64,000 nt of DNA. Origin: an uncultured delta proteobacterium. Its GTDB lineage: Bacteria > Myxococcota > Myxococcia > Myxococcales > Anaeromyxobacteraceae. The stretch lies in assembly GCA_963828255.1 (NCBI GenBank), contig CAWHDZ010000010.1:1-64000 (forward strand), read 5' to 3'. Both the position numbers and the translations under genes were made by a program. Positions 11,072 to 45,184 of the stretch are shown one piece after another (the stretch's first letter is position 1; each line of letters begins with the position of its first letter). The notes under the pieces are model-generated. The model ran no database searches, was not told the DNA's origin, and saw only the letters and a list, made by a program, of their open reading frames with translations.

Positions 11072-11142
11072 CTGAGGCGGAAGGATTCGAACCTTCATAC
11101 GCGGATCCAAAGTCCGCAGTCCTGCCGTTGGACGACGCCTCA
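11072..11142 (-). tRNA. tRNA-Gln(UUG), CCA not encoded
   Basis: Cloverleaf: acceptor TGAGGCG/CGCCTCA, D stem GTCC/GGAC, anticodon stem GCGGA/TCCGC with loop CTTTGGA, T arm GAAGG-TTCGAAT-CCTTC, discriminator G. Confidence 0.95.
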
Positions 11143-38927: not shown

Positions 38928-40037
38928 ATGGGTCTCGCCATCGGAATCGTCGGGCTGCCGAACGTCGGCAAGTCGACCCTCTTCAACGCGCTGCTGGGCC
39001 AGGCACAGGCCCAGGCCGCCAACTACCCGTTCTGCACCATCGACCCCAACGTCGGCGTCGTGCCGGTACCGGACGAGCGGCTGTTCCGGCTCTCCGCCCT
39101 CTTCCACCCGATGAAGACCGTCCCGACCACCCTCGAGTTCGTCGACATCGCCGGCCTCGTGGCCGGCGCGTCGAAGGGGGAGGGTCTCGGAAACCAGTTT
39201 CTCTCCCACATCCGCCAGGTGGACGCCATCGCCCACGTCCTGCGCTGCTTCGCCGATCCGGACGTGGTCCACGTGGGGGGGAAGGTGGACCCACGCGGAG
39301 ACCGGGACGTGGTCGAGACCGAGCTCATGCTGAAGGACCTCGAACAGATCGAGCGGCGGCGCGAGCGGAAGGCCAAGGAGGCCAAGGCGCCGGGCAAGCC
39401 GGGCGAGCTGGCCAAGGCCGAGATCGCCGTGCTCGACCAGGTGAAGGAAGGTCTCGAGAGGGGGACCCCGGTGCGGATGCAGAAGCTCGCGCCGGAGCCG
39501 CTCGCCCTCCTCTCCGACCTCTTCCTGCTCACCGGGAAGCCCGTGCTCTACATCGCCAACGTGGACGAGGACCAGCTCACGCGCGCCGGCGACCCGACGG
39601 TCGCCCAGGTGAAGGCGCTCGCCGACGAGGAGGGGGCACGCTGCGTCGTCATCAGCGGCAAGGTCGAGGCCGAGCTCTCCGAGTTGCCCGCGGCGGAGCG
39701 GCTCGACTTCCTCCACAGCCTGGGGCTCGACCAGCCCGGCCTGAACCGGCTCGTCCGCGCCGGCTACGAGCTGCTCGGCCTCTCCACCTTCTTCACGGTG
39801 GGCGTGGACGAGTGCCGGGCCTGGACCATCCACGACGGCATGACCGCGCCCCAGGCGGCCGGCACCATCCACACCGACTTCGAGCGCGGCTTCATCAAGG
39901 CCGACGTGCAGCGGTGGGAGGACCTCGTCCAGCTGCGGACCGAGGCGGCCGTGAAGGAGAAGGGGCTGCTCCGCATCGAGGGCAAGGAGTACCGGGTGAA
40001 GGACGGCGACGTGATGCATTTCCGCTTCAACGTCTGA
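38928..40037 (+). CDS. ychF: redox-regulated ATPase YchF
   Basis: GLPNVGKSTLFN, ANYPFCTI, DIAGLV.GAS.GEGLGN, IHTDFERGFI, DGDVMHFRFNV. Confidence 0.98.
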   Translation: MGLAIGIVGLPNVGKSTLFNALLGQAQAQAANYPFCTIDPNVGVVPVPDERLFRLSALFHPMKTVPTTLEFVDIAGLVAGASKGEGLGNQFLSHIRQVDAIAHVLRCFADPDVVHVGGKVDPRGDRDVVETELMLKDLEQIERRRERKAKEAKAPGKPGELAKAEIAVLDQVKEGLERGTPVRMQKLAPEPLALLSDLFLLTGKPVLYIANVDEDQLTRAGDPTVAQVKALADEEGARCVVISGKVEAELSELPAAERLDFLHSLGLDQPGLNRLVRAGYELLGLSTFFTVGVDECRAWTIHDGMTAPQAAGTIHTDFERGFIKADVQRWEDLVQLRTEAAVKEKGLLRIEGKEYRVKDGDVMHFRFNV

Positions 40038-40513
40038 GGGGCCTTCGGGCCAGCGGATCGCGCTTCGGGTGCCGCCGGCGGGTGGCCGCCGACGCTGGGC
40101 GCCGCTCCGCGCAGCAGTCCTCGCGGCGCTGGTGTTCGGACGAATGGCGTCGGGGCTCCCCGGGCCGCACGGCCCGGGTCTCGACGCCCGCTGCGGGCAG
40201 CTCGTCGCGGCGCACCGCCGCCGGCTGGCGACAGGCGGGCCCGAAGGCGACGCGGGCGCACTCGCCGCGAGGCGTCGGCGCTCCGCGTCGGGCGCACGGG
40301 TCGAGGCCGCTCGGACGTCCGCCGGGGTGACCGACAGCGACGCTCGCGAATCCCGCCGTCGCGGCGCCGACGCGCCGATCGCAGGCGCCCGGGGTGGCCT
40401 CGGCCGGGGCGCCTCCGCAGCGGACGACGGCGCGCCGCACGCGGATCCCCGCCGCGAGGACCAGCGCCTCCAGCGACGAGGACCACCACGGGCGCCGGCA
40501 CCACGGAAGGGCC
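40038..40513 (+). repeat. copy A of an unannotated ~460-bp structured non-coding repeat (candidate ncRNA or ssDNA element)
   Basis: Shares identical 16-27-nt blocks with 43898-44351; blocks pair at long range. Confidence 0.85.
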
Positions 40514-40661
40514 TCGCCCGCCCGGCCCGCGTCACTCGCCCCGATCGAGGCTGCGACAACGTGACGCGCCGTCACGCTCCGGATGCCGGGTAGCGTGGTC
40601 GGCGCGATCCTCCGCGAGGCGGGGAGGGACACGCCGCGGGATCGCGACAGGGGAGGGGAGC

Positions 40662-42078
40662 ATGCACGCCCGGAGCAGGCAGGGATTGGTTTGTCTCGCG
40701 CTCGGACTCGCGCCGCCGGCTGCCAGCAGAAGGCCAGCCCAACGCCGCCGTCCACGGTGGCGAGCCAGCAGGGGACCGCGGGCGCCGTCGTCGACTACGA
40801 CGGGGACGGGGTGGGCGATCTCCTCGTGGGAGCGCCGTTCGCCGTCGGCGGCGACGGCCTGGGCGCGGTGCTCGTCTACCGCGGCACCGCCACCGGATTC
40901 GAGCCGGAGCCGGCCTGGACCCTGATCGGGGACGACAACTTCGGGTCGCAGGTCACCGCGGTGGGGGACGTCGACGGCGACGGCGCGATCGACTTCGCGG
41001 TGGCGGCCCTCAACGGAAACGGCCCCGAGGCCTCGCTCTCCGGGAGCGTCACCGTCTACCGGGGCGGGTCGACCGGACAGGTGCTCGCCCGGCTGGGCGG
41101 GGAGCAGGCGCTCGACAAGTTCGGCGCCTCGGTCACGGGAGGCTGCGACCTCGACGGCGACGGGCGGCCCGACCTGGTCGTGGGCGCGACCGGGCACTCG
41201 CCGGGGCCGGACCGCTACCTGGGAGGCGCGTACTACGTCTACTTCGGGCCGGACCTGTCCGAGGCACGCCGGGTCAAGATCCCGGCGACGGTCTCCACCG
41301 GGATCCTCGGCTTCGCGTCGGCCTGCGGCGACGTGAACGGCGACGCGGTCGACGACCTCGTGGTGTCCGCCATCTGGACCCACGGCGTGATCTGGCATGC
41401 GTCCAAGGTTCTGGTCTTCTACGGAAAGTCCGGTTTCACGGCCAACCCCGACGCCGCCGACGTCACCGTGAACTCGACGGCGTCCCACTTCGGCGACGCG
41501 CTCGGCGTCCTCGGCGACCTGGACGGCGACGGATTCCGCGAGATCGCGATCGGGGTGCCGTCCTTCTACGCCATCCCGGCTCCCGACGACCACGAACCCC
41601 ATGACCAGCCTCAAGGGTCGCGTCTTTCTCGTGAAGGGCGGCGCGGGGACGCGCACCGTCAACCTGTCGGCTCCCCCGGGAACCCCGATCCCCGCGCTCC
41701 TGACCACCCTGACCGGGACCGACTACCTGGAGCGGTTCGGCATCGACGTTCGCCTCGCTCGGGGACCTCGACGGGGACGGCAAGCCGGACTTCGCGGTGG
41801 GAGCGCCGCACGGTCACGCCGCGGGCGCCACCAGCCTCGACACCGGGTGGGTGAGCGGGCGGGTGTACCTCTTCCTCGGGAAGGACGTGGCCACGACCGG
41901 AGCGGCCACGCCCGCGACCCGGGCCACCCTGCTGAGCCGCCCCGGGAAGACCCTCCACTACGGGTCATTCCTGACGCCGTTCGCGAGATCCGGAGCGCGC
42001 CTCCTCGTGGGAGCACCCACCGCCAACCGGCAGGACGGGACGGTCTTCGTCGAGGAACTCGCGGCGGTGCTGCCGTGA
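40662..42078 (+). CDS. FG-GAP/integrin-alpha-like beta-propeller lipoprotein (about 3 frameshifts)
   Basis: SD GGGAGGGGAG; signal ending AAGC; repeated GD(V/L)DGDG..D..VGA and FG motifs spread over several frames. Confidence 0.8.
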
Positions 42079-42092
42079 GCGGGGGAGGGAAC

Positions 42093-43068
42093 ATGATCGC
42101 AAGGATCGCCGCGACGGCGTTGCTCGTCGGAGGAGTGGCGGCAGCCGCCGGGGCCGTCTGGGACTCGTCCAACTTCACGATGGAAGGGCGGAAGTGGCAG
42201 CCGGCCCCGACGGGGCACGTTCCGGGAAAGGACAACCCGGTCACCGCGATGGACGGCAGCCACCACCCCGGGGACGACTGCGGGATCTGCCACGCTCCGG
42301 CGGCCTCCGAGACCGCGATCTACAAGCCCATCGCGCGCGCCCGGGTCTTCAGCCTGACGGGCACGATCTACGACAGCCGCGCGGCGCGGGCGCCGGTTCC
42401 GGGCGCCGAGCTGGTCGTGCAGGACTACGGCGGCAACGTCATCAGCGTCGCTCGCCAACGACCTCGGGAACTTCTGGACCGAGCAGGCCATGACCGGGGA
42501 TCCGGCCGCGGCGGATCCGGCCACCTCCGACTCCTGGCGGTACAAGGCCTGGGTGAAGGCCGAGGGCGGGGTCCGGCCGATGATGACGATGCCGTCCGTC
42601 GGCGGGATGACCGTGCCGCGCATGAGCTGCAACATGCACCACGTCACCACCGGTACGCTGGGGGGAGCCTGGGCTGCTCCCCGCGGAACCCTGCGCAGCT
42701 ATCCGGCCGCGGGCCTCTCCTACCGCAAGCACGTCTTCCCCATCCTCCGGAGCAAGTGCGCCCCGTGCCACATCCCCGGACCGACCGAGGCGGCGCAGGC
42801 AGGGGAGACCTTCGACTACGGAGCCGGGCTCGACCTTCTCACCTACGGTGGATCGACGGTGGAGGTGCACGACTCCACCGGAGGGGTGACGACCTACGCG
42901 AAGAGGGGAATCGCCACCGTCGTCAACACGGCGCGTCCCTCGGAGAGCCTGCTCTTCGCGAAGACCATCGCCGGAGGAACGCACGGCGGCGGCGCCTTCT
43001 GGGACGAGAGCTCCGCCGACTACCGCGCCCTTCGCCAGTGGATCGGCGAGGGCGCGCTGGACAACTGA
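42093..43068 (+). CDS. exported c-type cytochrome (one frameshift near 42450)
   Basis: Signal peptide; CGICH and CAPCH heme motifs plus CNMHH; planctomycete-cytochrome-like VFPIL..KCAPCH...LDL...WI.EGA. Confidence 0.75.
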
Positions 43069-43886
43069 TGGCGCGTCGTGCGGCCGCACTGGTCCTCGCA
43101 CTGGCCCTGTCCGGCTGCGGGGCCGGCACGACGACCGATCCGGCCGGCACCGGGGGGCCGACCGGGCCATCCGGTCCGACCGGCCACGGCCCGCTCCCTC
43201 GTCGTCGTCGCGGAGGGGAGGGCCGGGCCCTGGACCGTCCGGGTCCAGTCGGACCGCTCCCTGGGAACCGGCCTCGTCGCGCTCGCCATCCGCGTGACCG
43301 GGCCGGAAGGGATCCCGATCACCGACGCGGTGATCTCCTTCGAGGCGCGCCGGCCGACGAGCGGCCTCGTCGCGCCGGTGTCGAACGGGCCCCGGGTCGG
43401 ACGCCGACGGCAGCTACCACATGGACGTCTCCTTCGCCGAGGCCGCCTCCGCCGCCGAAGGATGGGTCTTCCGCATCGAGGTCACGCGGTCCGGCGAGAC
43501 CGCCTCCGTCACGCTCTCCGGCGTCCCCGTCGTCGAACGGAACCTCGCCGGCACGTTCGCCAGCGGCGGACGGCACCATCGTCCTCGCGGTCCGCTTCGA
43601 GTCCGGCCTGCGGATGGGCGGGAACCCGATCACGGTGGCGCTGCACGAGTTCGGGTCGGGTACCGGGGACGCCCAGCCGCTGGGAGACGCGACCCTGCAT
43701 GCGGTGCCGTACATGCCATCGATGGGGCACGGCTCGACCGGGACCGTCGACCCGGTACCCACCGGAACCCCCGGCGTCTATTCCGGATCGCTCTTCTTCT
43801 CGATGGCCGGGGACTGGGAAACCACGTTCGCCGTGGCGCGAGGCGGTGCGGAGATCGGCCGGGTCGCGGTGACGGTCTTCTTCTGA
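43068..43886 (+). CDS. YtkA/FixH-like lipoprotein (about 3 frameshifts)
   Basis: Lipobox LSGC; C-terminal PYMPSMGHG...GVY.G...FSMAGDW. Confidence 0.75.
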   Translation: MARRAAALVLALALSGCGAGTTTDPAGTGGPTGPSGPTGHGPLPRRRRGGEGRALDRPGPVGPLPGNRPRRARHPRDRAGRDPDHRRGDLLRGAPADERPRRAGVERAPGRTPTAATTWTSPSPRPPPPPKDGSSASRSRGPARPPPSRSPASPSSNGTSPARSPAADGTIVLAVRFESGLRMGGNPITVALHEFGSGTGDAQPLGDATLHAVPYMPSMGHGSTGTVDPVPTGTPGVYSGSLFFSMAGDWETTFAVARGGAEIGRVAVTVFF

Positions 43887-43897
43887 GCGGCGTCCGG

Positions 43898-44351
43898 GGG
43901 GCCTTCGACGGCGGGTGAGTGCCGCCGGCGGGTGGGACGCGCTCGCTCCGCGCCGCAGTCCTCGCGGCGCGGTGGACTGCCGGGATGGCGTCGGAGCTCC
44001 CCGGGCCTGACGGCCCGGGTCCGACGCCCGCTGCGGGCAGCTCGTCGCAACGCGCCCCCCGCCGGCTGAATCGCCGGGGCCGAAGGGCTCTCGGACGTTC
44101 TCGCCTGGGGAACCGGCGAGTGCTCGCCGTCCATCCCTCAACGAGCCGACGGCGCGCGAGACGGATGAGCCCGAGCGCCGTGCGCGGGCCGACCGGACGA
44201 CGCCCTCCCTGTCCAGGCGCCCGGGGTGGCCTCGGCGCGGCGGCGCCTCCGCAGCGGCCTCGACGACGTTCACCCAGCGCGAATCCCTCCTGCCGCGAGG
44301 ACCAGCGCCCGGCGACGAGGACCACCCGGGGCGCCGGCATCACGGAAGGGC
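43898..44351 (+). repeat. copy B of the structured non-coding repeat
   Basis: Same conserved blocks in the same order as 40038-40513, with different variable linkers. Confidence 0.85.
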
Positions 44352-44376
44352 ATCGCGCCCGAGGTCCCCGCTCGTC

Positions 44377-45184
44377 CTACTCGATCCACCCAATCTCGCG
44401 GGCCGTCGCCTCGCCGACCCGGAGTTCCTCGAGCGACTCCGGCAGCCGCCCGCGCCCCGGGGCGAGCGGCACCTCTCCCACCATCCACTCGGCATGAAGC
44501 TGGGGGTAAGGGGTACCCGGGCCGGATCGGCAAGGCCGTCCGGCACGCGAGCGTGGCCCCCGGAGTCGTACCGGTCGGTGGCGCCCACGGTATGGAACAG
44601 CTCGTGCCCGATGGTCTGCAGGGAGAGGGAGAGATCCCCGTCGCAGGAGCCGCGCACGAAGGCCACCTCGCCGTTCACGGCGCCGGAGCCCTCGGCGAAT
44701 CCCAGCTGGCCGTCGGACAGGGGCGCGCACAGGAAGAACACCCGCAGGTCGAAGCCGCCCACCGCGCCCCCGGCGGCCCGGTCGATGTCGCGGATGGTCC
44801 TCCAGACCTTCACCGCGTGCCTGGCACGCTCGAGCGGGGAGGCCGCGGGAGGCGAGAAGGGGAGGGCCCCGCTCCAGCCGACCGGCCCGACCACCGAGAT
44901 CCGGAAGCGCCGCCGCCCGGGCCTCGCCAGCGGACCATCTCCGCGTCGATGCGCGCGGCCAGGCCGTCGGCGCCCCGTCGCCAGGTCTCGTCGTCGATCT
45001 CGCCCCCGGGGGAGAGGAGCACGAGCCCCACCTCGAGCGGACGCTGCCAGCTTCCTCGTGACCATCGATGCCAGGATCGGGTCGCTCCCCAGGCGACGGT
45101 GAAGAGCAGGACGCCGAGCAGGAGGCCGATCCGGATGCGCCGGAATGTCCGGCCACGACCCGGAGGCGAAGGGGCGCGCGTCAT
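44377..45184 (-). CDS. membrane-anchored putative zinc metallopeptidase (2 frameshifts)
   Basis: N-terminal [15 protein letters not shown] zincin motif; C-terminus AEWM..E...TAREIGW. Confidence 0.65.

Follow-up and report, generated by a model that had tools for sequence, protein, structure and literature searches.

An apparently undescribed, BIME-like mosaic family of large hairpin rods at gene ends in a genus of Anaeromyxobacteraceae

Repetitive extragenic palindromic (REP) sequences and bacterial interspersed mosaic elements (BIMEs) are the described systems closest to the repeats considered here. REPs form pairs of inverse orientation, are placed behind genes and in the gaps where convergent genes meet, differ in number at a given locus and can take in genes (PMC3733652, PMC3333891, PMC3184786; statements from the literature, here and below, refer to excerpts of the papers cited). 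The roles reported for REPs and BIMEs concern mRNA stability, termination, supercoiling and, where the repeat lies within 15 nt of a stop codon, translation (PMC3733652, PMC3184786, PMC12306157). We have analysed two related elements, copy A (40038-40513) and copy B (43898-44351), in a 64,000-nt stretch of DNA, hereafter the window, from an uncultured delta proteobacterium of the Anaeromyxobacteraceae (assembly GCA_963828255.1, contig CAWHDZ010000010.1, positions 1 to 64,000). An earlier note on this DNA had taken A and B for the two copies of a large pseudoknotted non-coding element, possibly an RNA. Our results make it reasonably probable that they are members of a genus-restricted mosaic family, with ~20 sites, of ~200-nt hairpin rods that stand back to back just past stop codons, that these rods are likely to be structured 3' ends of mRNA, and that the copies resemble one another through copying between loci.

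A mosaic family built from two modules

The family is real and appears to be undescribed; the open-access literature that was searched held no description of it. The five blocks that A and B had been said to share, and all the complementary pairs named between them, sit exactly where the earlier note placed them, and the two copies align at 74% identity over 462 columns (E ~2e-62), which far exceeds chance. Instead of two copies, however, there are 23 matches in this assembly (G000; G, C and L numbers are our handles for genomes, contigs and loci) to a covariance model, R1, built from 67 units of the module that we call R, and 3-28 matches in 12 of the genus's 13 other genomes. Scoring was confined to the 19-29 best candidates in each genome, so that these counts are minimum values and a genome without R is one in which none was found. 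A profile made from ten copies had matches on 14 G000 contigs and none in the reversed genome. The repeat is present in 13 of the 14 genomes of the genus, the only positives among 81 genomes searched in the taxonomic family; covariance-model searches did not find R in the 67 other genomes of that family, and within the order 6 of 121 genomes were positive, all in the genus, with R not found in the other 115. As default RNAalifold gave only 19 pairs on alignment A2, R1 rests on a sparse structure, and its searches are mostly sequence-driven, so that remote relatives may escape. Pattern searches of viral contigs returned 61 and at least 120 matches, and among those listed neither the R nor the T profile had a match; nor did a profile match any of five pattern hits in other phyla, and a plasmid search gave no match. 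Four DNA sequencing runs that were examined showed related genotypes only and no informative joint.

The layout of the modules is directly established. R is an irregular rod of ~205 nt that carries a side hairpin and is prolonged by a short 3' extension. T, a unit of ~150-190 nt, folds by itself and is an inverted, degenerate paralogue of R: when reverse-complemented, 8 of 13 T units matched the R profile at E<0.002 (best E 5e-10). The two are found as R-T, as in A and B, as R-inverted R, as R alone, as R-R-T or R-T-T-T, in longer stacks and as R-gene-T; stubs from internal deletion are also present, and element length runs from ~240 to >1000 nt. Across genomes the same site can differ in this respect, as at ychF, with one R-T in G003 and on contig C6, R-inverted R in G009 and nothing in G004. 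Genes may also be enclosed. At the alaS site of G010 a 652-aa beta-helix protein lies between R and T (L025:3008-4966), with none there in G000, and other elements hold a 100-aa protein, at the ftsZ site (L040:4396-4692), and SodC, a Cu/Zn superoxide dismutase (L056:4284-4736). By eye, all three of these passengers look exported. One 183-nt insert, with identical junctions, lies within R at five loci and is missing from the orthologous loci of close relatives, a pattern that would fit either one insertion copied between loci or site-specific insertion. The insert of ~181 nt (L077:614-794, G000 C27), which lies in R just 5' of the invariant bulged T, is a separate repeat of wider range, with free copies in G000 at C17:188891-189070 and C34:112266-112445, ~18 near-full copies in G020 and matches in G021 and G017.

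The proposal that the elements are non-coding was borne out. Of the 56 distinct indels found in 67 R units, 50 have lengths that three does not divide (long-read errors may account for some one-base indels), and conservation along R is without a three-base phase (0.77/0.78/0.79); a decayed protein gene was rejected on the frame-breaking indels and the absent codon phase. The absence of A and B from Rfam was also checked, and no family matched: at the gathering score the whole 64-kb window gave a tRNA only, with no match on either copy, and nine loci of G000 searched by E-value gave one chance match (E 0.32). The sole Rfam match of the window is tRNA-Gln with a UUG anticodon (11072-11142, minus strand). 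Scans of 39800-44700 for sigma-70 promoters and U-tail terminators found none, which is a weak test in a genome of 72% G+C.

Folding, genomic position and turnover of the rods

Conservation of the R rod is evident across the 67 units, and the structure-conserving character first seen between A and B was upheld. The four strongest covarying column pairs in the alignment are all complementary and nested. For a rod of 46 pairs, picked from the same alignment in which they were then counted, 93.5% of 3061 cells are paired and 23 pairs have two-sided changes, while none of 500 shuffles scored as high and slid controls gave 39-53%. Same-branch Watson-Crick swaps on the tree numbered 46, against a null mean of 1.6 with permuted partners and a maximum of 15 in 5000. 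A cleaner indication than these counts comes from linkage between columns. Alleles of the apex are found in every combination with the two core subfamilies, which shows recombination, and yet the core arms are concordant in 67 of 67 units while other columns recombine; r2 was 0.89-1.0 for 9 of 11 paired columns, whereas its means for other column pairs were 0.1-0.2. Equally constant in all 67 are T at columns 93, 173 and 212 and C at column 175, the invariant features of R comprising a T-C mismatch and two bulged T residues. With 12 shuffles for each unit, the mean z of the R fold was -3.3 on the plus strand and -4.6 on the minus strand; since both strands fold well, the sequence by itself favours neither RNA nor single-stranded DNA.

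The complementary blocks of A and B are thus real, but the single pseudoknotted RNA of ~460 nt that had been drawn from them did not survive comparison with other copies. Among 45 distinct R-T copies, the long-range helices had 3 and 2 compensatory cells, compared with 39 for four local pairs of the R apex. These helices and the pseudoknot are intact in 15, 22 and 13 of the 45 copies, the last figure allowing at most one mismatch, and the long-range helices break where R varies. The T segment named as the pseudoknot partner pairs inside T (90% of cells), and the long-range helices are a by-product of T being an inverted paralogue of R. Nor does a multi-helix transcript of a single plus strand describe the family, as the 5' and 3' halves are of opposite polarity, R folds on both strands, and the halves are found alone, doubled, inverted or split by a gene. 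Folded as a whole strand, copy A (490 nt) was no better than shuffles (z -0.83) and copy B (470 nt) modestly better (z -2.79). The last of the options first offered, a repeated or mobile-element family, comes close to the outcome, whereas the ribozyme and the discrete non-coding RNA (ncRNA) do not.

The polarity of the units to stop codons is also a direct observation. A rough gene caller placed a co-oriented gene before 72 of 85 outward R heads, with the stop codon no more than 40 nt away in 64 of the 72, and outward T ends are positioned likewise in 22 of 25 cases; at either side, the gene that ends there meets an R or T rod of the same polarity a few dozen bases past its stop. Sites in G000 lie between convergent genes in 14 of 21 cases, as compared with 533 of 3511 gaps (15%). 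The flanking genes are ordinary chromosomal genes, for example ychF, ftsZ, alaS and tgt. A 667-aa fusion of TGT and Methyltransf_30 (MnmC-type) adjoins one element (L026:530-2530, minus strand; G000 C38:79478-81478). Local GC skew, read for orientation relative to replication, was weak and mixed (10 negative, 7 positive) and uninformative.

These sites are fixed within the genus. Of 118 clusters retrieved from 13 genomes, 9 are singletons and 109 belong to 19 shared groups; in some of these groups, neighbouring sites or paralogous flanks are combined. An orthologous interval exists in G000 for 45 of 55 sites in relatives and is filled there too in 37; three of the eight "empty" intervals hold a visible stub, and several rows are the same site. 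Polarity tends to be preserved: among 37 flanks represented in at least three genomes, counting classified ends only, 17 had an R head only, 10 a T end only and 10 were mixed. Orthologous copies are nonetheless no closer to each other than random pairs (similarity 0.682 versus 0.676). The nearest neighbour of an R unit was in the same genome for 61 of 96 units (11.6 expected) and at the same site for 7 (5.2 expected). As the sites are fixed across species and yet copies resemble those of their own genome, we infer copying between fixed loci. In a sister genus (g10) the ychF 3' gap of G022 (L183:2611-3030) holds a different, near-perfect palindrome of ~330 nt, which is multi-copy (22 matches each in G022 and G066, both strands counted); to the eye, a short CTCTC...GCTGCGAG arrangement is common to this palindrome and R, but the palindrome has no R profile match.

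The ychF locus of the window

In the window the gene upstream of copy A is ychF (38928-40037, plus strand; Pfam and NCBIfam YchF matches), whose stop codon lies 3 nt before the head of the element. The R unit of copy A, an inverted repeat forming an irregular rod of ~205 nt (40041-40248, plus strand; model match 40055-40256, E 1e-18), is closed by GCCTTCG/CGAAGGC, with its side hairpin at 40146-40188 and the invariant bulged T at 40192 and 40226. It is followed by the R 3' extension and a variable linker (40249-40369, plus strand), the linker position being that which holds passenger genes in other copies, and by unit T, a shorter rod on the minus strand (40370-40515; profile match 40378-40515; own fold z -2.48). 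Between the copies lies a cargo of three plus-strand genes (40662-43886), all frameshifted in this assembly, for an FG-GAP repeat protein, a CxxCH-motif protein without a Pfam family and a YtkA-like protein. The head of the R unit of copy B (43901-44087, plus strand; z -3.40; model match E 2.5e-20) is 14 nt after the stop of the YtkA-like gene (43886), and its invariant bulged T is at 44032 and 44067. The 3' extension and variable linker (44088-44202, plus strand) lead to unit T (44203-44354, minus strand; z -2.67), the outer end of which is ~25 nt from the stop of a convergent gene (44377-45156, minus strand). This gene, which has no Pfam family and is frameshifted here, adjoins the ychF site across the genus.

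The arrangement of 3.2 kb of cargo between two whole elements is the same in G001 and G013, and the cargo is absent from the ychF site in G003, G004, G009, G012 and contig C6. Its distribution is patchy (4 of 14 genomes in the genus, 3 of 67 others in the taxonomic family), and the middle (CxxCH) protein was found in 7 of the 81 family genomes. At five other cargo loci that were checked, no R or T lay beside it. The window contig is ~88% identical to contig C6 across 49 kb and duplicates the G000 contigs C6, C4, C8 and C37 at 85-89% identity; judged by these duplications, the G000 genome bin is a mixture of two related species. The subfamily of A and B is unseen among other G000 copies and common in G006 and G013, and a mixture of two species may explain its absence from the former. 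Many of the frameshifts in the window resemble long-read errors.

Possible origins, and relation to known repeats

How might such a family have arisen? It may have spread once, early in the genus, through an enzyme. Since then, ectopic recombination (gene conversion, slippage and inversion) would have swapped modules, duplicated some and removed others, and allowed foreign genes to enter between them, and selection, or a protein that reads the hairpin, would purge variants that break the rod or its bulges. By analogy with REPs and BIMEs, a transcribed rod could block 3' exonucleases, could pause or end transcription where convergent genes meet and, when both units are read through, could form a site for a double-strand nuclease. 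The rods would then serve as structured mRNA 3' ends, in protection, pausing or processing.

Several observations weigh against mosaic rods with a role in mRNA. The relatives were sampled partially (8 clusters from at least 27 matches in G010, for instance). The empty ychF site of G004, and the reduction of some G000 sites to stubs, indicate that the element is dispensable. The choice of the 46 pairs from the counted alignment favours the rod, and conversion tracts across the apex shift both arms jointly and inflate counts of independent events. Neither strand is clearly preferred, the plus strand being more stable as RNA in 46 of 67 units and the z score favouring the minus strand, and a role at the level of DNA fits the covariation equally well, with nothing in the sequence to pick RNA over single-stranded DNA. 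A preference for convergent gaps is also expected of parasites (PMC3049150). Finally, the REP analogy is incomplete: R measures ~205-250 nt and has a side hairpin, five to ten times the length of a REP (20-40 nt); it lacks the GTAG or CGTC foot of REPs, the six bases before its stem in 85 heads including GGATCG (27), GGGGCG (12) and GAGGCG (8); and no cognate transposase lies beside it. From its unit length and the lack of a foot and a cognate transposase, R is not a member of the group formed by REPs and their associated tyrosine transposases (RAYTs).

The main rival holds that the rod is a single-stranded DNA hairpin. An HUH (Y1) enzyme or a recombinase would recognise it, copy R into elements already in place and pick up passengers; placement at gene ends would then reflect exposed single-stranded DNA and tolerated insertion. 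It is the main rival because TnpA-REP needs a stem mismatch, recombines BIMEs in vitro and can take in genes (PMC3333891). It would account for stem imperfections that are invariant in 67 of 67 units, for swaps that are mostly Watson-Crick to Watson-Crick and for passengers as varied as the beta-helix protein, SodC, the 100-aa protein and the cargo of the window, and a candidate enzyme exists in a RAYT-like (Y1) gene that is single-copy and syntenic in 13 of the 14 genomes of the genus. (In G000 this gene is at C3:19985-20650, equivalent to L011:1117-1782, minus strand, in a low-G+C stretch at the 3rd percentile.) However, the gene is accompanied by a 10-base motif, with 4-6 copies within 1.5 kb at 12 of 12 loci, that is probably its own REP, its protein scores 48 against an NCBIfam cut-off of 80, and its relatives extend to genera that lack R, being present in 46 of 67 genomes (E<=1e-5). 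Genome-wide, the motif occurs 72 times against 34 expected, or ~2x. Moreover, no R, T or insert was found near the RAYT-like gene (10 loci) or near IS91-type or reverse-transcriptase loci (best E 0.02, 17 loci in all), the one IS91-type fragment of G000 is without R, Pfam revealed no IS110-type transposase in G000, and the 31 flanking and passenger proteins scanned included no transposase or recombinase. We regard this explanation as unlikely. Rather improbable, in our opinion, is a functionless relic of an old burst resembling miniature inverted-repeat transposable elements (MITEs), with long inverted ends persisting where they are harmless and homogenised by ordinary recombination. R-inverted R copies do resemble long terminal inverted repeats, stubs and internal deletions are common, and enrichment in convergent gaps is typical of parasitic repeats (PMC3049150). 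On the other hand, a target-site duplication was not detected in 76 clusters (longest direct match across the ends 5.03 versus 5.03 in shuffled pairings, with old ragged ends weakening the test), no autonomous element with the same ends was found among the neighbours (DDE families were not searched), new sites are few, as the singletons show, and the helix arms stay coupled, the core arms in every unit, while other columns recombine freely.

Two other explanations fare worse. A discrete plus-strand ncRNA or ribozyme of ~460 nt with a pseudoknot is very unlikely and largely refuted: its complementary blocks exist, B folds better than shuffles and no Rfam family matches, but its long-range helices and its pseudoknot, broken in most copies, do not covary, its halves are independent and opposed in elements of widely differing length, and the 3 nt between stop codon and head in copy A leave no room for a promoter. 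Repeats of another myxobacterium, Nannocystis exedens, have reportedly been proposed to be retrotransposed copies of a hairpin like the msd of retrons. The same origin for the present rods, which are also long imperfect hairpins in a myxobacterium, is hardly credible, as no reverse transcriptase was found in G000 by Pfam, the 3 of 14 genomes of the genus that have one hold no R beside it, and the sites are fixed and oriented to stop codons. It is also conceivable, though in our estimate rather improbable, that a dedicated protein reads the bulged rod of ~200 nt, copies it among ~20 fixed addresses at gene ends and uses these as entry points for foreign genes. Such a self-targeting hairpin system would amount to an integron-like capture network over core operons, and at the same addresses sister genera would employ giant hairpins of unrelated sequence.

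A supposed new ribozyme has thus become a clear case in the debate over whether REPs are selfish or kept for a function, and it bears on a second REP question, whether gene conversion or transposition is the cause of their likeness. About 20 loci stay put throughout the genus, their sequences turn over genome by genome, a marked variant sits at several loci, and through all this shuffling a 200-nt fold keeps its invariant bulges. Hence the family is well suited to measurements of conversion and structural selection, and to the question of what recognises the bulges. There is also a caution, in that comparing only two copies, when their modules are inverted paralogues, can give a false appearance of long-range helices and pseudoknots.

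Among known repeats, the pneumococcal BOX, RUP and SPRITE are alike in being modular (67-637 bp), in forming stem-loops, in their enrichment between convergent genes and mutual insertion, and in now rarely transposing; BOX and RUP have terminal inverted repeats and differ in their target duplications, none being detectable in the R family, and SPRITE differs in a U-rich tail that the R family lacks (PMC3049150). In the R family, terminal inverted repeats are present in R-inverted R and only degenerate in R-T, and many copies are R alone. Bacterial MITEs, including a 288-bp integron mobilisation unit, share with R a gene-less, long stem-loop that can bracket passengers, whereas for the R family no target duplication and no insertion sequence with matching ends was found, and nothing points to recent spread into new sites (PMC3184786). 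As regards the attC sites of integrons, the genes beside R are chromosomal core genes such as ychF, ftsZ, alaS and tgt, and not cassettes. The multicopy nucleotide sequence families of Geobacter, compared by description, are similar in being lineage-specific, palindromic and intergenic in a delta-proteobacterial genome and in clustering non-randomly (PMC2996986). Closest are REPs, BIMEs and the REPIN-RAYT system, which are likewise intergenic imperfect palindromes with conserved stem mismatches, set as inverse pairs round a linker (PMC3333891, PMC3733652, PMC3184786, PMC12306157), and which share tandem amplification, variation at a given locus, positions just past stop codons and in convergent gaps, use as an insertion target and the enclosing of genes. 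The R family differs in flanking no RAYT, in occupying ~20 loci instead of hundreds and in keeping the same loci throughout a genus while their sequences turn over. It is, in sum, an unusually large BIME-like mosaic repeat with a putative function at gene ends.

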